Source: an uncultured Christensenella sp. (GTDB lineage: Bacteria > Bacillota > Clostridia > Christensenellales > CAG-917). Taken from it: DNA of 64,000 nucleotides. The stretch is taken from assembly GCA_910584155.1 (NCBI GenBank), contig CAJTYG010000006.1, positions 199 through 64,198 on the forward strand, in the 5' to 3' direction. Made by a program: the position numbers and the translations under genes. The notes beneath the pieces are model-generated. The model was not told where the DNA came from and searched no databases. It worked only from the letters and a program-made list of their open reading frames with translations. Shown one piece after another: positions 56,279 through 63,878 of the stretch (positions are counted from its first letter, which is position 1; every line of letters starts with the position of its first letter).

Positions 56279-56869
56279 ATGACGCTGCCTCTTACGTTGG
56301 CGCTTGCCACCAACAACAAACACAAGCTACAGGAAATCCGTTCCATTCTTAACGGTCAGTTTGAAAAGCTGCTTTCGCTTGAGGAATTGGGCATAAACGT
56401 AGATATCGAAGAAACGGGCGCTACCCTCACGGAAAATGCCCTTATAAAGGCAAGAGAAATAGTGAAGCTCACAGGTATGCCCGCACTTGCGGACGATACG
56501 GGGCTTATGGTCGACGCACTCGACGGTGCTCCGGGCGTATATTCGGCACGCTACGCAGGCGAGGAGCACAACGACAAGGCAAACAGGATGCTGCTTCTCA
56601 AAAATTTGCAAAACGCAAAAAGCCGTTCCGCCCACTTTGCCACAGTCATCGCACTCTGCTATCCCGACGGGACGTATCTTCTTGCCGACGGCAAGGTCGA
56701 GGGCGAGATAATATTTGAGGAAAGAGGCGAAGGCGGTTTTGGATACGACAGCATTTTCTACTCGCACGAGCTCGGCAAAACTCTTGCGGAAGCTACGCCG
56801 GACGAAAAAAACTCGGTCAGCCACAGAGGCAGAGCATTGCGAAATATGCTCAAAATGCTGCAAAAATAG
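56279..56869 (+). CDS. rdgB: non-canonical purine NTP pyrophosphatase (RdgB/HAM1)
   Basis: 196 aa with ...ATNNKHKLQEI..., ...DDTGL.VDAL.G.PGVYSARY..., ...FGYD.IF.... Confidence 0.92.
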   Translation: MTLPLTLALATNNKHKLQEIRSILNGQFEKLLSLEELGINVDIEETGATLTENALIKAREIVKLTGMPALADDTGLMVDALDGAPGVYSARYAGEEHNDKANRMLLLKNLQNAKSRSAHFATVIALCYPDGTYLLADGKVEGEIIFEERGEGGFGYDSIFYSHELGKTLAEATPDEKNSVSHRGRALRNMLKMLQK

Positions 56870-56872
56870 CCT

Positions 56873-57337
56873 ATGCGTACTATAGTTGCATTTTCAGACA
56901 GTCACCACGCCACCCTGCCGCAAAAGCTTCTGGACGTGGCAAACGAAGCCGATTTCGTATTCTTTTTAGGCGACGGCAGTATGTCGCTTGACGATTTGCT
57001 TTTCCATAAAAATCTAATTATCGTAGACGGCAACTGCGATCCGCCATGCTTCGGCAATGAAAAGATGATAGAAGTCGAGGGAGTGAAAATTCTGCTTACG
57101 CACGGGCATATATACTCTGTAAAACGTGATTTGTTGCCGCTCGCACTGCACGCAAAGGAATTAAACTGTCAGGCAGTGTTCTACGGGCACACGCACCAAG
57201 CGGAAATATCCGAATATGACGGTGTAACGCTCATCTGCTCGGGCTCGCCCTGCTACCCGAACGGAAATTTTGCCTCATACGCTTACGCCGTAGCGCACGA
57301 CGGAAAATTAACCGCTAAAATCGTAAACATAACTTAA
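56873..57337 (+). CDS. YfcE/MJ0936-family metallophosphoesterase
   Basis: 154 aa with SDSH, GDG, THGH and GHTH motifs. Confidence 0.88.
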   Translation: MRTIVAFSDSHHATLPQKLLDVANEADFVFFLGDGSMSLDDLLFHKNLIIVDGNCDPPCFGNEKMIEVEGVKILLTHGHIYSVKRDLLPLALHAKELNCQAVFYGHTHQAEISEYDGVTLICSGSPCYPNGNFASYAYAVAHDGKLTAKIVNIT

Positions 57338-57425: not shown

Positions 57426-57499
57426 GCGGGTGTAGTTCAATGGTAGAATCTCAGCCTTCCAAGCTGATTGCGTGGGTCCGATTCCCATCACCCGCTCCA
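57426..57499 (+). tRNA. tRNA-Gly (anticodon UCC), CCA encoded
   Basis: Cloverleaf folded by hand. Acceptor gcgggtg/cacccgc, anticodon loop cuUCCaa, 4-nt variable region, T-loop reads UCCGAUU (non-canonical C55). Confidence 0.85.
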
Positions 57500-57531
57500 A
57501 ACCACTTCAAGTGGACAGCCGATTGGCATTT

Positions 57532-57608
57532 GAGCCTGTAGCTCAGCAGGATAGAGCAACGGCCTTCTAAGCCGTGTGTCGGGGGTTCGAATCCCTTCAG
57601 GCTCGCCA
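57532..57608 (+). tRNA. tRNA-Arg (anticodon UCU), CCA encoded
   Basis: Acceptor gagcctg/caggctc, anticodon loop cuUCUaa, T-loop ttcgaat. Confidence 0.88.
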
Positions 57609-57611
57609 GAT

Positions 57612-57689
57612 GGTGGATATAGCGCAGTTGGTTAGCGTGCCAGGTTGTGGCCCTGGAGGTCGTGGGTTCGAATCCCACTATTCACCCCA
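57612..57689 (+). tRNA. tRNA-His (anticodon GUG) with encoded G-1, CCA encoded
   Basis: Extra 5' G opposite discriminator C, anticodon ...gttGTGgc..., T-loop ttcgaat. Confidence 0.88.
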
Positions 57690-57791
57690 CAGCTCAACTC
57701 ATTGCACTCCAATGGGTTGAGCAAAAAATTTAAAATAACACAGTCAATGCCTTGCTTTTTTTGACGACAAGTGTTATCATAGCTTGCAAAT

Positions 57792-57866
57792 AGGGGTATC
57801 GCCAAGCGGTAAGGCATCAGATTTTGATTCTGACATTCGTTGGTTCAAATCCAGCTACCCCTGCCA
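57792..57866 (+). tRNA. tRNA-Gln (anticodon UUG), CCA encoded
   Basis: aggggtatcgccaagcggtaaggc... typical Gln D-arm, anticodon loop uuUUGau. Confidence 0.88.
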
Positions 57867-57869
57867 AAC

Positions 57870-57945
57870 GACTCACTAGCTCAGCAGGTAGAGCACCGCA
57901 CTTTTAATGCGATGGTCCGGAGTTCGAATCTCCGGTGGGTCACCA
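57870..57945 (+). tRNA. tRNA-Lys (anticodon UUU), CCA encoded; integration target of the island
   Basis: Acceptor gactcac/gtgggtc, anticodon loop cuUUUaa, T-loop ttcgaat. Confidence 0.9.
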
Positions 57946-58721: not shown

Positions 58722-60068
58722 TTATTCTCCCTTTTTTCTTCTTTTTACTTTGCATCTCTTTGGAAACGTATCTTTTATATATTTAAAATCATGCGGAACA
58801 CTTATAGTTTTTAAATAAGGACAACTTGAAAATACTCCTCTTTCAATAGCCATTTTGCTATTTAAAATAATTACACTCGTAAGCCCGCAGCAACCTTCGA
58901 ACGCCTTATAGCCTATGCTCGTCACGCTGTCGGGAATTGTTATGCTCGTTAGCCCGCTGCAGCCATCGAACGCCCTATCGCCTATGCTCGTCACGCTGTC
59001 AGGGATGGTTATGCTCGTCAGCCCGCTGCAACCATAGAACGCCCGTTCGCCTATGCTCGTCACACCGTCAGGAATAGTCACGCTCGTCAGCCTGCTGCAA
59101 CCTTCGAACGCATAAGAATCTATGCTCGTCACGCTGTCGGGAATCGTTATGCTCGTTAGCCCGCTGCAACTTTCGAACACACCATTACCTATGTTCATCA
59201 CGCCGTCGGGAATAGTCACGCTCGTCAGCCTGCTGCAACCGTTGAACACACCTCTACCTATGTTCATCACGCCGTCGGGAATAGTCACGCTCGTCAGCCC
59301 GCTGCAACCTTCGAACACATAAGAATCTATGCTCGTCACGCTGTCGGGAATCGTTATGCTCGTTAGCCCGCTGCAATCTCTGAACGCACTATTACCAATG
59401 CTCGTTCCACCTGTTATGATTACCTCTTTTAAACCGCTTGGAACATAGTTTAAATTATCACGATAATTTTTTGCTCCGAATATATATCCAAAGTGTGTAT
59501 CAGTCGTATCATCTTTTGTTGCGCCAACAAACGGTATCGTTATGTTTGTAAGTCCGCTACAACTAGAGAACGCACTATCACCTATGCTCATCACACTGTT
59601 TGGGATCGTTATGCTCGTAAGCCCACTGCAACCATAGAACGCCCACTCGCCTATGCTCGTAACGCTGTCGGGTATCGTTATGCTCGTTAGCCCTGTGCAA
59701 CCATAGAACGCTCGCTCGCCTATGCTCGTAACGCTGCCGTCTGTTGGAATAACGCTATTTTTGCACCCTAATATAAGGGTTTTGGTTGCGGTTCCTATAA
59801 GGCAGTTATTTGCACTATAATATGTTGAATTGCCTTGTGCAATAGTAATGCTTGTAAGCCCGCTGCAACCATAGAATGCACCGGAGCCAATGCTCGTTAC
59901 GCTGTCGGGGATAGTTATGCTCGTTAGATTACTGCAACCATAGAATACCAAATTGCTAATGCTCGTCACGCCATCGGGGATGGTTATACTCGTAAGCCCG
60001 TTGCAACTATAGAACGCCCACTCACCTATGCTCGTAACGCTGGCAGGAATAACCAGATCCTTTACCAA
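58722..60068 (-). CDS. BspA-type leucine-rich-repeat protein, probably 5'-truncated
   Basis: About 17 tandem repeats of roughly 23 aa (SITIPDSVTSIGxxAFxGCSGLT). No signal peptide. The reading frame stays open upstream to 60127 with no ATG; the listed start is a TTG. Confidence 0.6.
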   Translation of the reverse strand: MVKDLVIPASVTSIGEWAFYSCNGLTSITIPDGVTSISNLVFYGCSNLTSITIPDSVTSIGSGAFYGCSGLTSITIAQGNSTYYSANNCLIGTATKTLILGCKNSVIPTDGSVTSIGERAFYGCTGLTSITIPDSVTSIGEWAFYGCSGLTSITIPNSVMSIGDSAFSSCSGLTNITIPFVGATKDDTTDTHFGYIFGAKNYRDNLNYVPSGLKEVIITGGTSIGNSAFRDCSGLTSITIPDSVTSIDSYVFEGCSGLTSVTIPDGVMNIGRGVFNGCSRLTSVTIPDGVMNIGNGVFESCSGLTSITIPDSVTSIDSYAFEGCSRLTSVTIPDGVTSIGERAFYGCSGLTSITIPDSVTSIGDRAFDGCSGLTSITIPDSVTSIGYKAFEGCCGLTSVIILNSKMAIERGVFSSCPYLKTISVPHDFKYIKDTFPKRCKVKRRKKGE

Positions 60069-60113: not shown

Positions 60114-60902
60114 ATAATAACCACAGAATTATTTAATAAAGTACAAGAAAAAGTTAACGCAAACAAATTTGGCAAACAAAGCCTTAAAACCGATTATTTG
60201 TTACGTAAAAAAATAAAATGCGGCTATTGTGGAGAGCCCATAAACGGCGAAAGCGGAACTACTAAAAATGGCACTAAATTTTATTATTACAAATGTATAG
60301 GCAGAAAAACACATAGAACGAATTGCACTAAATCTGTTATACGCAAAGACGTTTTGGAAAATTTAGTGATAGAAACAATTATCACTGTATTAAACAAATC
60401 CGATATAAAAAGTAAGATAGTTAAGGAACTGCTTAAACGTCAGGAAACACAGATGACATCTAACACAGAATTAAGCATATTAACTAAACAACAAAAGCAA
60501 GTTGAAACGGCGTTAAACAACCTTGTAACAGCCATAGAGCAAGGAATAATATCCAACTCAACCAACAAGCGATTACAAGAATTAGAGCAACGACAGGCGG
60601 AATTAGAGCGGCAAATACTAATAGAAAAAAGCAAAACCGTTGTAAAGCTTACGGAGCAAGACATACTCGCCTATTTTGAACAAGCATTACGATTAGAGCC
60701 TAAGTTGCTGATAAACTTTTTGATAAAAGAAATAGTGCTATATGATGACAAGATAGAGATATACTTCAACAGTCCTACACCGACAAGTCCGGATGAAAAT
60801 TCGGGCTTTTCTTTTTATTTCGAAACGACATCTATTATACAGAACTTGCTTTGCAAAGATAAGTCTTATATACAGGAGATTAAAGTTGCTTTATTTTTAT
60901 AA
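60114..60902 (+). pseudogene. large serine recombinase, C-terminal fragment only (zinc ribbon plus coiled coil)
   Basis: ...ELFNKVQEKV...LLRKKIKCGYCGEPINGE...FYYYKCIGRKTHRTNC... followed by a coiled coil. The N-terminal resolvase catalytic domain is absent. The frame opens only at 60105. Confidence 0.7.
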
Positions 60903-60990
60903 TGACATAAAAACTTGCATTTAATGCTATTTGGTTGATAGATTTTACATTGTGAACCTGCTCATATAAAAAATAATTGAAGGTATTAAT

Positions 60991-61590
60991 ATGAAAAAAT
61001 TTATCATCAAACAAAACAAATATCTTAAACAAGACATAATTGGATTTTACAATTGCGATTACATCGGATACCGACAACCAAATAATCCTGACTTTATCAA
61101 TCACTTAAAAAATATGTCCAACCAACTTGATGAACTTGATCTTGTAGATGATTTTATTGAAGTTATAACCCGATTCACACACGATTGCCACGAAATACTC
61201 TCAATCACTCGGAATATGATTGTCTGTGTCGTTCCGAGATCAAAAAACGAAAAAAGCTACAATCAAAGTCAACGCTTGTTTAAGAATGCTATTTCTTGCG
61301 CAGTTAATAATATGCATATAGAAAATGGTGTTGATACTATCAAAAGAGTAAGGAACTCAAAAACAACTTATAATTGGAGATTATCGAATAACACGGGCAA
61401 AATGCCTTATCCGGGAATAACCAAAGACACATGCGAAATAAACGAAAGCGCAATACGTAACAAAACCGTACTGCTTGTTGACGACATTTATACAAAAGGT
61501 GTAAATGTGGCAGAAGATTGCATACAAACGTTACTTGATTTAGGCGCAAAAGATGTTATACTTTACGTAATTGCTAAAACAAAGGAATAA
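60991..61590 (+). CDS. ComF-type phosphoribosyltransferase-fold protein
   Basis: 199 aa with PRPP-binding loop VLLVDDIYTKGVNV and ComF-like ...VVPRSKNEKSYNQSQRLFKNA.... Confidence 0.75.
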   Translation: MKKFIIKQNKYLKQDIIGFYNCDYIGYRQPNNPDFINHLKNMSNQLDELDLVDDFIEVITRFTHDCHEILSITRNMIVCVVPRSKNEKSYNQSQRLFKNAISCAVNNMHIENGVDTIKRVRNSKTTYNWRLSNNTGKMPYPGITKDTCEINESAIRNKTVLLVDDIYTKGVNVAEDCIQTLLDLGAKDVILYVIAKTKE

Positions 61591-61592
61591 CA

Positions 61593-62429
61593 ATGTACAC
61601 CCTCACCGCACTAAAAATTTATACTGCTATCTGCAATGGTATAATCAAATCCCGCTCATCCTTTTGGCGTGATTTTTCAAGCGTTGATAAAATAAACGAT
61701 TTAGATCTGGATTGTTCAAAAAGCGAACAATCAATAGTAAATGGTAGATTTAATATAACGTGCTGCTTTGATAATGACTTCCCCACTATCGACGAGAGTA
61801 TTCCACAGAATGATAGACCGTTTTTGTTCATATATAAAGGCAACTTAAATTTGCTAAATGACATTTCAAAAAATATAGCAGTCGTAGGAGTCTTAACTCC
61901 CGACGAAGACATCACCCGCCGAGAACAAAATATTGTCACTCAACTTGTCAAAAATGATATTTGCATAGTAAGTGGATTGGCAAGAGGTTGCGACAGCATT
62001 GCTCACAAAGCTTGTTTGAAAAATGGCGGAAAGACCGTTGCATTTTTGCCTTCGACGATAAATTCGATATACCCTGCCGAAAACACTTCACTTGCAGAAA
62101 GCATAGTAGAAAACGATGGACTTATAATAACCGAATATGCAACTGAGTCCACAAATTATAAAGAAAATATTGCACGGCTTATCGAGCGAGACAGGCTGCA
62201 AGCTATGTTTGCAAATTCCATCGTTTTAATCGCAAGTTATCGCAAAGGAGACGGAGATAGCGGAAGCAGACACGCTATGCTTAAAGCCAAACGCTACAAC
62301 AGAAAAAGACTCGTTATGTTCAATAAATCTACCGACGAAGGCAATCCGCTTTTCGGACTTAATGAGGACATGATAAAAGACGGGACAAAGATATTAACCC
62401 ATTCAAGCATAAAGGAATTACTTAATTGA
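61593..62429 (+). CDS. DprA/Smf-like (SLOG Rossmann) protein
   Basis: 278 aa with ...NIAVVGV..., ...SGLARGCDSIAHKACLKNGGKTVAFLPS..IYPAEN..., ...GLIITEY..., ...ERDRLQAMFANSIVLIAS.... Starts 2 nt after the PRTase stop. Confidence 0.75.
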   Translation: MYTLTALKIYTAICNGIIKSRSSFWRDFSSVDKINDLDLDCSKSEQSIVNGRFNITCCFDNDFPTIDESIPQNDRPFLFIYKGNLNLLNDISKNIAVVGVLTPDEDITRREQNIVTQLVKNDICIVSGLARGCDSIAHKACLKNGGKTVAFLPSTINSIYPAENTSLAESIVENDGLIITEYATESTNYKENIARLIERDRLQAMFANSIVLIASYRKGDGDSGSRHAMLKAKRYNRKRLVMFNKSTDEGNPLFGLNEDMIKDGTKILTHSSIKELLN

Positions 62430-62965
62430 AATATATAGTAGACTTAGATGACACGCTTGTTAATACAACTGAATTGAACAACGACGCTTACAACTACGCC
62501 TTAAAAAAATACGGATATTGTCCTATAGAAACAGATTTACGAATAACCAGAAACGATTTGCAATCATTGACAAAATTGCAAGAGATAATCAACATAAAAC
62601 AATACTATTTCTCTGAAAAATGGTTGCCGTACAGAGTTATTATTAACGATACTTTACTTGGCAAAATTAAACGACAAAACAAATCCGATTGCTATATATG
62701 GACAAAGGCTGATAAATATCGTGCGGAATTCATTTGCAAATATTGTAATCTCAACAGATATTTTAGCAAAATAATATTTGATAAAAAAACAAATATCAGT
62801 CAATCCATCTCATATTTAGGCAGTATTATGCACGATGATATGCTAATTTATGAGAATAATATGCAATTCTTTGCCAATTCCAGCTCTCAAATTGTAGATA
62901 CAATAAAAAACAAATATTTTAATATCAATGGATACTTTATCAGCAATAAAAATCAAACAACCTAA
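62426..62965 (+). CDS. HAD-superfamily hydrolase/phosphatase
   Basis: 179 aa with motif I DLDDT at residues 6-10. The TTG start overlaps the DprA-like stop (TTGA). Confidence 0.65.
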   Translation: MKYIVDLDDTLVNTTELNNDAYNYALKKYGYCPIETDLRITRNDLQSLTKLQEIINIKQYYFSEKWLPYRVIINDTLLGKIKRQNKSDCYIWTKADKYRAEFICKYCNLNRYFSKIIFDKKTNISQSISYLGSIMHDDMLIYENNMQFFANSSSQIVDTIKNKYFNINGYFISNKNQTT

Positions 62966-63593: not shown

Positions 63594-63878
63594 AGCCGCA
63601 CCCTCTCAAAAATATCTTATAAATAGTATATTTTATCTATTAAGCAATGTCAATATCGATTTAGCATGCGCAGACCTTTGAGATTCAAGACATATACCAT
63701 GCTTATACTTGTCGAATTTTGTTGATTTTTTGCTACCTTTGTCGAACACGAAATTATTTGCCGAAAAGGCTTGCTATATGTCATTTAGAGTGATATTTTG
63801 TAAGTGTCTTCCAATAACTCCTTTAATGTGTAGAGAAATAGCGGCGTCAATTTGGCGTCGTTATTTCTTTTTGCACTA

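Follow-up and report, generated by a model that had tools for sequence, protein, structure and literature searches.

We analysed a 64,000-nucleotide stretch of contig CAJTYG010000006.1 from an uncultured Christensenella sp. (this whole stretch is hereafter called the window) and conclude that the three-gene cassette at positions 60991-62965 is probably a toxin-antitoxin/abortive-infection module of the ShosTA family, with the toxin split into two genes. Gene 1 encodes a stand-alone phosphoribosyltransferase (PRTase), gene 2 a DprA-like Rossmann protein and gene 3 a stand-alone HAD phosphatase. By profile and fold comparison, genes 1 and 2 belong to the ShosTA (DprA-PPRT) family, and the HAD is a conserved partner of the shosT/shosA pair, not a chance neighbour. 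The cassette is a known system in a new layout with a separate hydrolase, not a new kind of defence; since ShosT of Escherichia coli is already a HAD-fold hydrolase fused to a PRTase, the 'third component' is a re-partitioning of a known architecture. Three features seem to be new: the HAD can exist as a gene of its own, its sequence keeps the DxDxT nucleophile that is missing from the whole E. coli-type family, and the aligned ShosA of this lineage lacks R139, an arginine essential in E. coli. The reading is built on the family membership of genes 1 and 2, the conservation of catalytic residues, and a HAD that is regularly linked, and at times fused, to the pair; toxicity, antitoxin action, an anti-phage role and the HAD substrate are carried over from the E. 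coli studies.

The E. coli system provides the reference for what follows. The earliest description of ShosTA is that of a toxin-antitoxin pair (Kimelman 2012, cited in PMC9122126), Rousset et al. found the pair as a DprA plus a PRTase in a P2 hotspot (PMC9122126), and the E. coli system confers protection from T7 and lambda (PMC9122126, PMC11961720). Crystal structures show that ShosT of E. coli APEC O1 has a HAD-like pyrophosphatase domain at its N-terminus, joined in one chain to a PRTase domain; binding of phosphoribosyl pyrophosphate (PRPP) is needed for toxicity, D331A/D332A and R285E abolish it, and the acceptor substrate is still to be found according to the published work (PMC11961720, PMC12961424). 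The DprA-like ShosA forms a homodimer and shows no binding to ShosT; it neutralises the toxin through single-stranded DNA (ssDNA) binding (R139, R234) and interaction with RecA, and has a disordered C-terminus that makes it unstable, so that the toxin is released on host shut-off by T7 Gp0.7 (PMC11961720, PMC12961424). It carries an N-terminal SAM-like domain ahead of the Rossmann fold (PMC11961720), and R139E abolishes its antitoxin activity (PMC12961424). A separately encoded hydrolase is not mentioned in PMC11961720, PMC12961424 or PMC9122126, and text searches gave no other mechanistic work.

Genes 1 and 2 match the ShosTA toxin and antitoxin

The three genes lie on the same strand and are closely packed in AT-rich DNA, with a GC content of 0.33-0.35 across 60-63 kb against about 0.45-0.52 for most of the window. 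The original prediction, which had been made from the letters of the window, described this arrangement; its coordinates, gene sizes, junctions and base composition were all confirmed, and every motif that it quoted is present in the translations. As demonstrated by the junction sequences, a GAAGG site stands 5' of the gene 1 ATG. The preceding leader contains a site with 9 of 12 consensus matches in a consensus scan (60950-60977), a weak promoter-like site that might serve as the promoter. Gene 1 ends in AAGGAATAA, two nucleotides (CA) separate it from the ATG of gene 2, and an AAGGAA site is located inside the final codons of gene 1. The 3' end of gene 2 reads ...AAGGAATTACTTAATTGA, its TGA stop is shared with the TTG start of gene 3 as TTGA, and another AAGGAA site lies 10 nt 5' of this TTG. 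Judged from the TTGA overlap, gene 3 is translationally coupled to shosA.

Gene 1 matched the PADLOC ShosT model PDLC03962 with 1.4e-10. Its AlphaFold model (pLDDT 92.6) gave the ShosT structures 8zvd/8zvc/8zvb as top PDB fold matches, narrowly above ComF and PurF, with ComF 7p0h as the third-best match. The PRPP loop VLLVDDIYTKG contains the acidic pair D164/D165, and this DD is invariant among 43 homologues. When the gene 1 family was compared with the E. coli-type ShosT family (34 proteins), hhalign returned a probability of 92% (E 6e-7) over 125 columns, and D164/D165 line up with D331/D332 of E. coli ShosT in this profile-profile alignment. Gene 1 is a PRTase only and lacks the hydrolase domain found at the N-terminus of the two-domain ShosT. 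PsyrT was matched as well (4.3e-5), at positions 606-685 of 689 only.

Gene 2 matched the PADLOC ShosA model PDLC03961 with 9.5e-50 (residues 25-263 of 278), Pfam DNA_processg_A (PF02481) with 1.5e-40 from residue 52, the PDB ShosA chains 8zva/9vzo with 1e-16 and PsyrA with 4e-19, and is 32% identical to E. coli ShosA over 175 aa. The predicted kinship with DprA-PPRT is thus borne out by the PADLOC ShosA and ShosT matches. Profile searches upheld the predicted PRTase, DprA and HAD assignments through PADLOC for genes 1 and 2 and through Pfam for genes 2 and 3, with gene 1 staying under the Pribosyltran cut-off. The 'unique' N-terminal extension of about 90 aa claimed for gene 2 was overstated, as the two profiles already align from residues 25 and 52 and the N-terminus is common to P0231, a relative in which the HAD is fused to ShosA. 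For comparison of gene order, an E. coli-type locus was recovered from the P2-like phage OM475433.1, in which shosA precedes shosT; the order in the window is indeed reversed. E. coli ShosT matches its own specific PADLOC model in addition to the broad PDLC03962 (1.8e-53).

We also aligned the 75 ShosA-like proteins of the collected loci with E. coli ShosA. The equivalent of R234 (R199 of gene 2, within ERDRL) is invariant. Of the two ssDNA-binding arginines this is the one that gene 2 retains: the equivalent of R139, the G-S/T-R arginine of DprA, is a leucine (L101) in gene 2, and L, I, V or T in 69 of the 75 proteins. The window ShosA stops about 15 residues past the profile match, and no counterpart of the E. 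coli C-terminal tail aligns; in some relatives the HAD is fused to ShosA exactly where the window ShosA ends.

These results bear on the alternative raised in the original prediction, an island-borne transformation module in which a ComFC-like PRTase and DprA act on incoming ssDNA with an unrelated phosphatase alongside. The rank of ComF 7p0h among the fold matches of gene 1 and the DprA domain of gene 2 would fit it. However, gene 1 scored 20.8 bits against a cut-off of 233.55 for NCBIfam ComF (TIGR00201) and gene 2 scored 113.3 bits against 191.15 for the DprA equivalog TIGR00732, the ShosA and ShosT profiles fit better, and the conserved DprA arginine is lost. Additionally, no competence family was found among the 25 commonest Pfam families in 121 genes flanking the relatives, whose genomic context is variable and mobile. 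Because the family cut-offs were missed and the 25 commonest families of the context include none of competence, we rejected this highly improbable alternative, in line with the predicted role outside DNA uptake.

Gene 3 is an apparently competent HAD phosphatase

Gene 3 matched Pfam HAD_2 with 25.8 bits against a gathering cut-off of 23.8, and PADLOC has no model for it. All four HAD motifs are present (I, DLDDT; II, T93; III, K121; IV, E143/N144), and D6, D8, T10, T93, K121 and E143 are invariant or nearly so in 42 homologues. The gene 3 model (pLDDT 94.4) has HAD-IA phosphatases as its best fold matches and displays the features of the HAD superfamily, with a subfamily-IA-like, Rossmannoid core and a conserved helical cap bearing the family signature NNDAYNYAL, RITR, KQxYF and WLPYR. 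The best PDB sequence match of the family profile is a nucleotide, xanthosine monophosphate (XMP), phosphatase, and it is weak (E 0.005). By its motifs, gene 3 encodes a canonical HAD phosphatase that is apparently catalytically competent. An exhaustive HMMER search with the HAD profile returned 478 representatives, a small family. One member, P0305 (380 aa), carries at its C-terminus, in place of a PRTase, a fused domain of about 220 aa that is unrelated and has no Pfam match, and may present the same HAD with a different effector partner.

The HAD is a conserved partner of shosT and shosA

The original prediction had proposed to check whether the three genes co-occur. We gathered homologues of gene 3 (109 clusters) and gene 1 (148 clusters), and surveyed 80 genomic loci with a gene-1-like PRTase by open reading frame (ORF) calling and hidden Markov model searches. 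The taxa range from metagenome-assembled genomes (MAGs) of Christensenellales to Bacteroidota, Spirochaetota, Pseudomonadota, Patescibacteria and one Methanosarcinales MAG. The HAD lies downstream of shosA, as in the window, in 44 loci, directly precedes shosT as its own gene in 18, and is fused to the PRTase N-terminus in two (L078 and L080, about 400 aa). It is a truncated remnant in one locus, absent from nine and not judgeable in six. The HAD therefore accompanies the pair in 64 of the 74 judgeable loci, which cover Bacillota, Bacteroidota, Spirochaetota, Pseudomonadota, Patescibacteria and one archaeon.

A ShosA-like gene follows within a few bases of the PRTase wherever the locus extends far enough, decayed copies being the only exceptions. 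The junctions from ShosA to HAD measure -17 to +4 nt in 37 of 42 cases, and essentially all HADs of the census keep DxDxT. Among the representatives of the HAD family, P0355, P0366 and P0346 are HAD-PRTase fusions, while P0231, P0352 and P0253 carry the HAD on the ShosA C-terminus. Consistently, a scan of metagenome contigs with the HAD family yielded six loci, five of them informative and one (L091) decayed, and ShosA lies immediately upstream of the HAD in all five clear loci. The HAD-T-A order, the T-A-HAD order and the E. coli order A-(HAD-T), in which the two toxin domains are fused, are cyclic permutations of one gene order.

Could the HAD be an unrelated passenger downstream of a two-gene ShosTA? 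The missing PADLOC model and the HAD-less loci would agree with this. Its presence across the six groups listed above (five phyla and the archaeon), its cyclically permuted positions, the overlapping junctions and the fusions to both partners speak against it, and we rejected this reading as effectively refuted by the census. The 'extra' coupled phosphatase of the original prediction is thus a genuine, conserved and coupled partner, although not an extra component that makes a new three-component system, given that within E. coli ShosT a HAD-fold domain is already fused to the PRTase domain and that relatives of the cassette fuse the HAD family of gene 3 to the PRTase.

Several relatives show further arrangements. 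In L043 (2484-4115) and L054 (5995-7635) the PRTase and ShosA are fused in one chain of about 545 aa that unites toxin and antitoxin, with the HAD as a separate gene upstream. In L040 (1684-5349) and L046 (2860-6615) a gene-1-like PRTase forms the C-terminus of a protein of 1221 and 1251 aa, respectively, which has a coiled-coil N-terminus and a UvrD-type SF1 helicase and is followed by ShosA-like and HAD genes; from this domain order, it is a PsyrTA-like hybrid that retains the HAD. The decayed module L091 (3300-4010) lies on an AT-rich metagenomic contig; the DD of its PRPP loop has become SD, shosA is gone and a HAD remnant is left.

The surroundings of the 80 loci vary, and the nearest flanking genes differ almost everywhere. 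Families that recur include phage integrases, serine recombinases, AbiEii-type ATPases, Fic/Doc and ResIII. PADLOC matches in the 121 neighbours, which are raw matches and not a measure of enrichment, include AbiLi, AriA, SoFic, IetA, CARF-HEPN, retron reverse transcriptases, PDC-S02/S04 and a type II methyltransferase.

Proposed mechanism and its alternatives

Most likely, by analogy with E. coli, the cassette would follow the published mechanism with the two activities of the toxin on two polypeptides. Specifically, a single coupled operon, borne by a small decayed integrative element, would give rise to all three proteins. The gene 1 toxin would bind PRPP and transfer or consume its phosphoribosyl group, as proposed for E. 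coli ShosT, and thereby disturb purine/nucleotide metabolism and DNA replication. The DprA-like gene 2 product would be the antitoxin; its E. coli counterpart neutralises without binding the toxin, through ssDNA binding, dimerisation and RecA-dependent repair. Gene 3 would be the stand-alone counterpart of the HAD-fold domain that E. coli and some Bacteroidales relatives have as the N-terminal part of the fused toxin, and would most likely aid the PRTase by removing a phosphorylated product, either pyrophosphate (PPi), as in the published model, or the 5'-phosphate of the product. The nucleotide-signalling pathway suggested in the original prediction found no support.

A number of observations weigh against parts of this reading. 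On the toxin side, the similarity between the PRTase and ShosT is remote: phmmer and profile searches of PDB sequences, for which genes 1 and 3 as well as a fused relative served as queries (single sequences and profiles), failed to recover ShosT, so that a fold search and a profile-profile comparison were needed for the link. The evidence on the hydrolase is more divided. Comparison of the gene 3 HAD family with the N-terminal domain of E. coli ShosT and with the family of that domain gave an hhalign probability of 0.1-0.2%, and the 50 best PDB fold matches of the gene 3 model do not include ShosT; owing to these two negative results we make no claim that the two HAD modules are directly homologous. 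A split-off ShosT domain is suggested instead by the fused Bacteroidales relatives and by the shared superfamily and architecture. When fused proteins of the window type are aligned with E. coli-type ShosT, the two run collinearly over 227 columns (probability 93%), starting in the region of HAD motif IV and taking in the linker and the entire PRTase, and many E. coli-type ShosT relatives have precomputed Pfam HAD_2/Hydrolase matches. The HAD is not strictly required, since nine judgeable loci lack it. The hydrolase-site mutant R56A lowers the toxicity of E. coli ShosT only marginally (PMC11961720), and a scan of viral contigs with the gene 3 HAD family gave no match. On the antitoxin side, the window ShosA may act differently from that of E. 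coli, because it lacks the equivalent of the arginine whose R139E substitution abolishes antitoxin activity there.

By the sequence data, the HAD could help the toxin, as in the reading above, or detoxify its product. In the second case, ShosTA would have the HAD as an enzymatic co-antitoxin beside ShosA, which dephosphorylates and so detoxifies an aberrant phosphoribosylated product of ShosT. The HAD is mostly coupled to the 3' end of shosA and is fused to the ShosA C-terminus in three family members. Its full catalytic set and conserved substrate-selecting cap are as expected of a small-molecule phosphatase, and the weak XMP phosphatase match points the same way. The loss of R139 could create a need for an extra neutralising activity, and the E. 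coli hydrolase-site mutation hardly altered toxicity. On the other hand, the same HAD is fused to or directly upstream of the toxin PRTase in 20 loci, fusions may just reflect adjacency, the nine HAD-less loci retain both shosT and shosA, and the sole biochemical data, from E. coli, favour PPi hydrolysis as the driver of the PRTase reaction. We consider a co-antitoxin rather unlikely.

A broader departure from the E. coli model, to which we give a somewhat better yet still minor chance, is that ShosTA of this large, mostly uncultured lineage is a three-enzyme nucleotide pathway and not a two-protein type IV toxin-antitoxin system. The intact, cap-bearing HAD may then act specifically on the phosphoribosylated product of the PRTase, either releasing a toxic nucleoside or detoxifying the product, and the ShosA-like protein without the DprA arginine may work by another route, for example nucleotide binding. 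The degenerate N-terminal domain of E. coli ShosT may be a relic, in which case 'PPi removal' would not be the ancestral function.

In the favoured reading of a ShosTA module with a split toxin, the lineage offers a natural separation of functions, with the PRTase, the DprA-like protein and the HAD as three polypeptides. Both mechanistic papers (PMC11961720, PMC12961424) pose as questions what ShosT uses as its physiological substrate and what its hydrolase domain does. Because the three activities are on three polypeptides and the HAD keeps the catalytic aspartates that the E. coli model has lost, the activities can be knocked out, purified and assayed one by one. Moreover, defence-annotation tools with two-gene ShosTA models overlook a third gene that most members of this branch conserve, and the replacement of the ShosA arginine warns against extending the E. 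coli antitoxin mechanism to the whole family. Together, the result refines a known system and does not add a new class of immunity.

The cassette lies on a low-GC insertion with a recombinase remnant

The low-GC insertion begins directly downstream of a five-tRNA cluster, which is itself preceded by Ham1-like and metallophosphoesterase genes (Table 1). Using L081, a longer contig of the same organism, we bounded the insertion between the tRNA cluster and spoIVA, an aminotransferase gene and der; it measures about 7.4 kb, of which about 1.4 kb lies beyond the window end. It contains a BspA-type leucine-rich-repeat (LRR) gene, a 5'-truncated large serine recombinase, the three-gene cassette and a few small ORFs. 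The recombinase remnant aligns to positions 297-447 of 542 of CcrB and to positions 372-579 of 651 of a PHROG integrase; only the C-terminal zinc-ribbon and coiled-coil part is left and the catalytic resolvase domain is gone. This remnant marks a decayed integrative element. In the relative L013, a resolvase-domain ORF and then a second ORF with a zinc-ribbon-like motif are found, both downstream of shosA. We searched for att-type direct repeats of the tRNA-Lys end as island boundaries and found none. The 'tRNA-Lys island' of the original prediction therefore rests on base composition, position and the recombinase remnant.

This setting could also suggest that the cassette serves mainly for addiction and keeps the element or island stable, without a significant anti-phage role in this host. 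It adjoins the recombinase remnant on the low-GC insertion, ShosTA was originally described as a toxin-antitoxin pair in the work cited above, and searches with Pfam and PADLOC and the annotation of L081 revealed no other recognised defence gene on the 7.4-kb island. Nevertheless, the E. coli system protects against two phages, relatives often adjoin genes with raw matches to defence models, and addiction and defence are compatible roles. We regard a mere addiction role as improbable.

Two further observations concern the rest of the insertion. The BspA-type LRR protein has 448 aa in the window and 379 aa in L082, a contig that is otherwise identical, which suggests variation in repeat number. 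An 84-nt intergenic element with repeated TTGTCGAA motifs is present in two copies that are 73% identical, the second just past the window end.

Table 1 Positions of the cassette genes and of neighbouring features in the window
Feature	Position	Strand	Details
Ham1-like gene	56279-56869		Upstream of the tRNA cluster
Metallophosphoesterase gene	56873-57337		Upstream of the tRNA cluster
Five-tRNA cluster Gly-Arg-His-Gln-Lys	57426-57945		Directly upstream of the low-GC insertion
tRNA-Lys	57870-57945		Final member of the tRNA cluster
BspA-type LRR protein	58722-60068	-	448 aa; 69-nt (23-aa) repeats
Large serine recombinase remnant	60198-60902	+	5'-truncated; Pfam Zn_ribbon_recom 1.3e-12
Intergenic leader	60903-60990	+	Gene 1 ribosome-binding site GAAGG and weak promoter-like site; sequence, consensus scan
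Gene 1, shosT-like putative toxin gene	60991-61590	+	199 aa; stand-alone PRTase; PADLOC, fold search, hhalign
Gene 2, shosA-like putative antitoxin gene	61593-62429	+	278 aa; DprA-like Rossmann protein; PADLOC, Pfam, PDB
Gene 3, stand-alone HAD phosphatase gene	62426-62965	+	179 aa; TTG start; Pfam HAD_2, motifs, model
84-nt element, copy 1	63697-63780		L081:11272-11355
84-nt element, copy 2	about 64543-64626		Just past the window; L081:12118-12201

Comparison with known systems

The ComFC and DprA proteins of natural transformation share the type I PRTase fold and the DprA Rossmann domain with genes 1 and 2, but the scores of the window proteins lie below the family cut-offs, the context is not one of competence, and the conserved ssDNA-binding arginine is replaced here. 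PsyrTA (RqlHI) resembles the cassette in combining a DprA-like antitoxin with a toxin that has a C-terminal PRTase; genes 1 and 2 match it more weakly, and the large N-terminal helicase of PsyrT is missing from gene 1. The HAD subfamily IA phosphatases and pyrophosphatases (PDB 3sd7, 2ah5, 7ef6), a group for which BT2127 is an example cited in PMC11961720, have the same Rossmannoid core, helical C1 cap and four motifs as gene 3 and provide its top matches both by fold and by sequence; the gene 3 family differs in being narrow, tied to shosTA and marked by its own cap signature.

The closest known system is ShosTA of E. coli APEC O1 and P2-like prophages (PDB 8zva-8zvd, 9vzo). Both consist of a PRTase toxin (putative here) with a DD loop, a DprA-like antitoxin (likewise putative here) and a HAD-fold hydrolase module, encoded by adjacent co-oriented genes on mobile elements, and both are matched by the PADLOC ShosT and ShosA models. 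They differ in gene order, which is T-A-HAD here and A-(HAD-T) in E. coli, and in the HAD, which is here a separate 179-aa gene product with DxDxT and a helical cap, whereas the whole E. coli-type family has 'VIF(S/G)xxDV' as motif I and lacks the nucleophile aspartate. The two HAD modules are not alignable and the PRTases are remotely related. Finally, ShosA has 278 aa in the window as against 327-349 aa in the E. coli type, no counterpart of the destabilising C-terminal tail aligns in the window protein, and R139 is missing from it.

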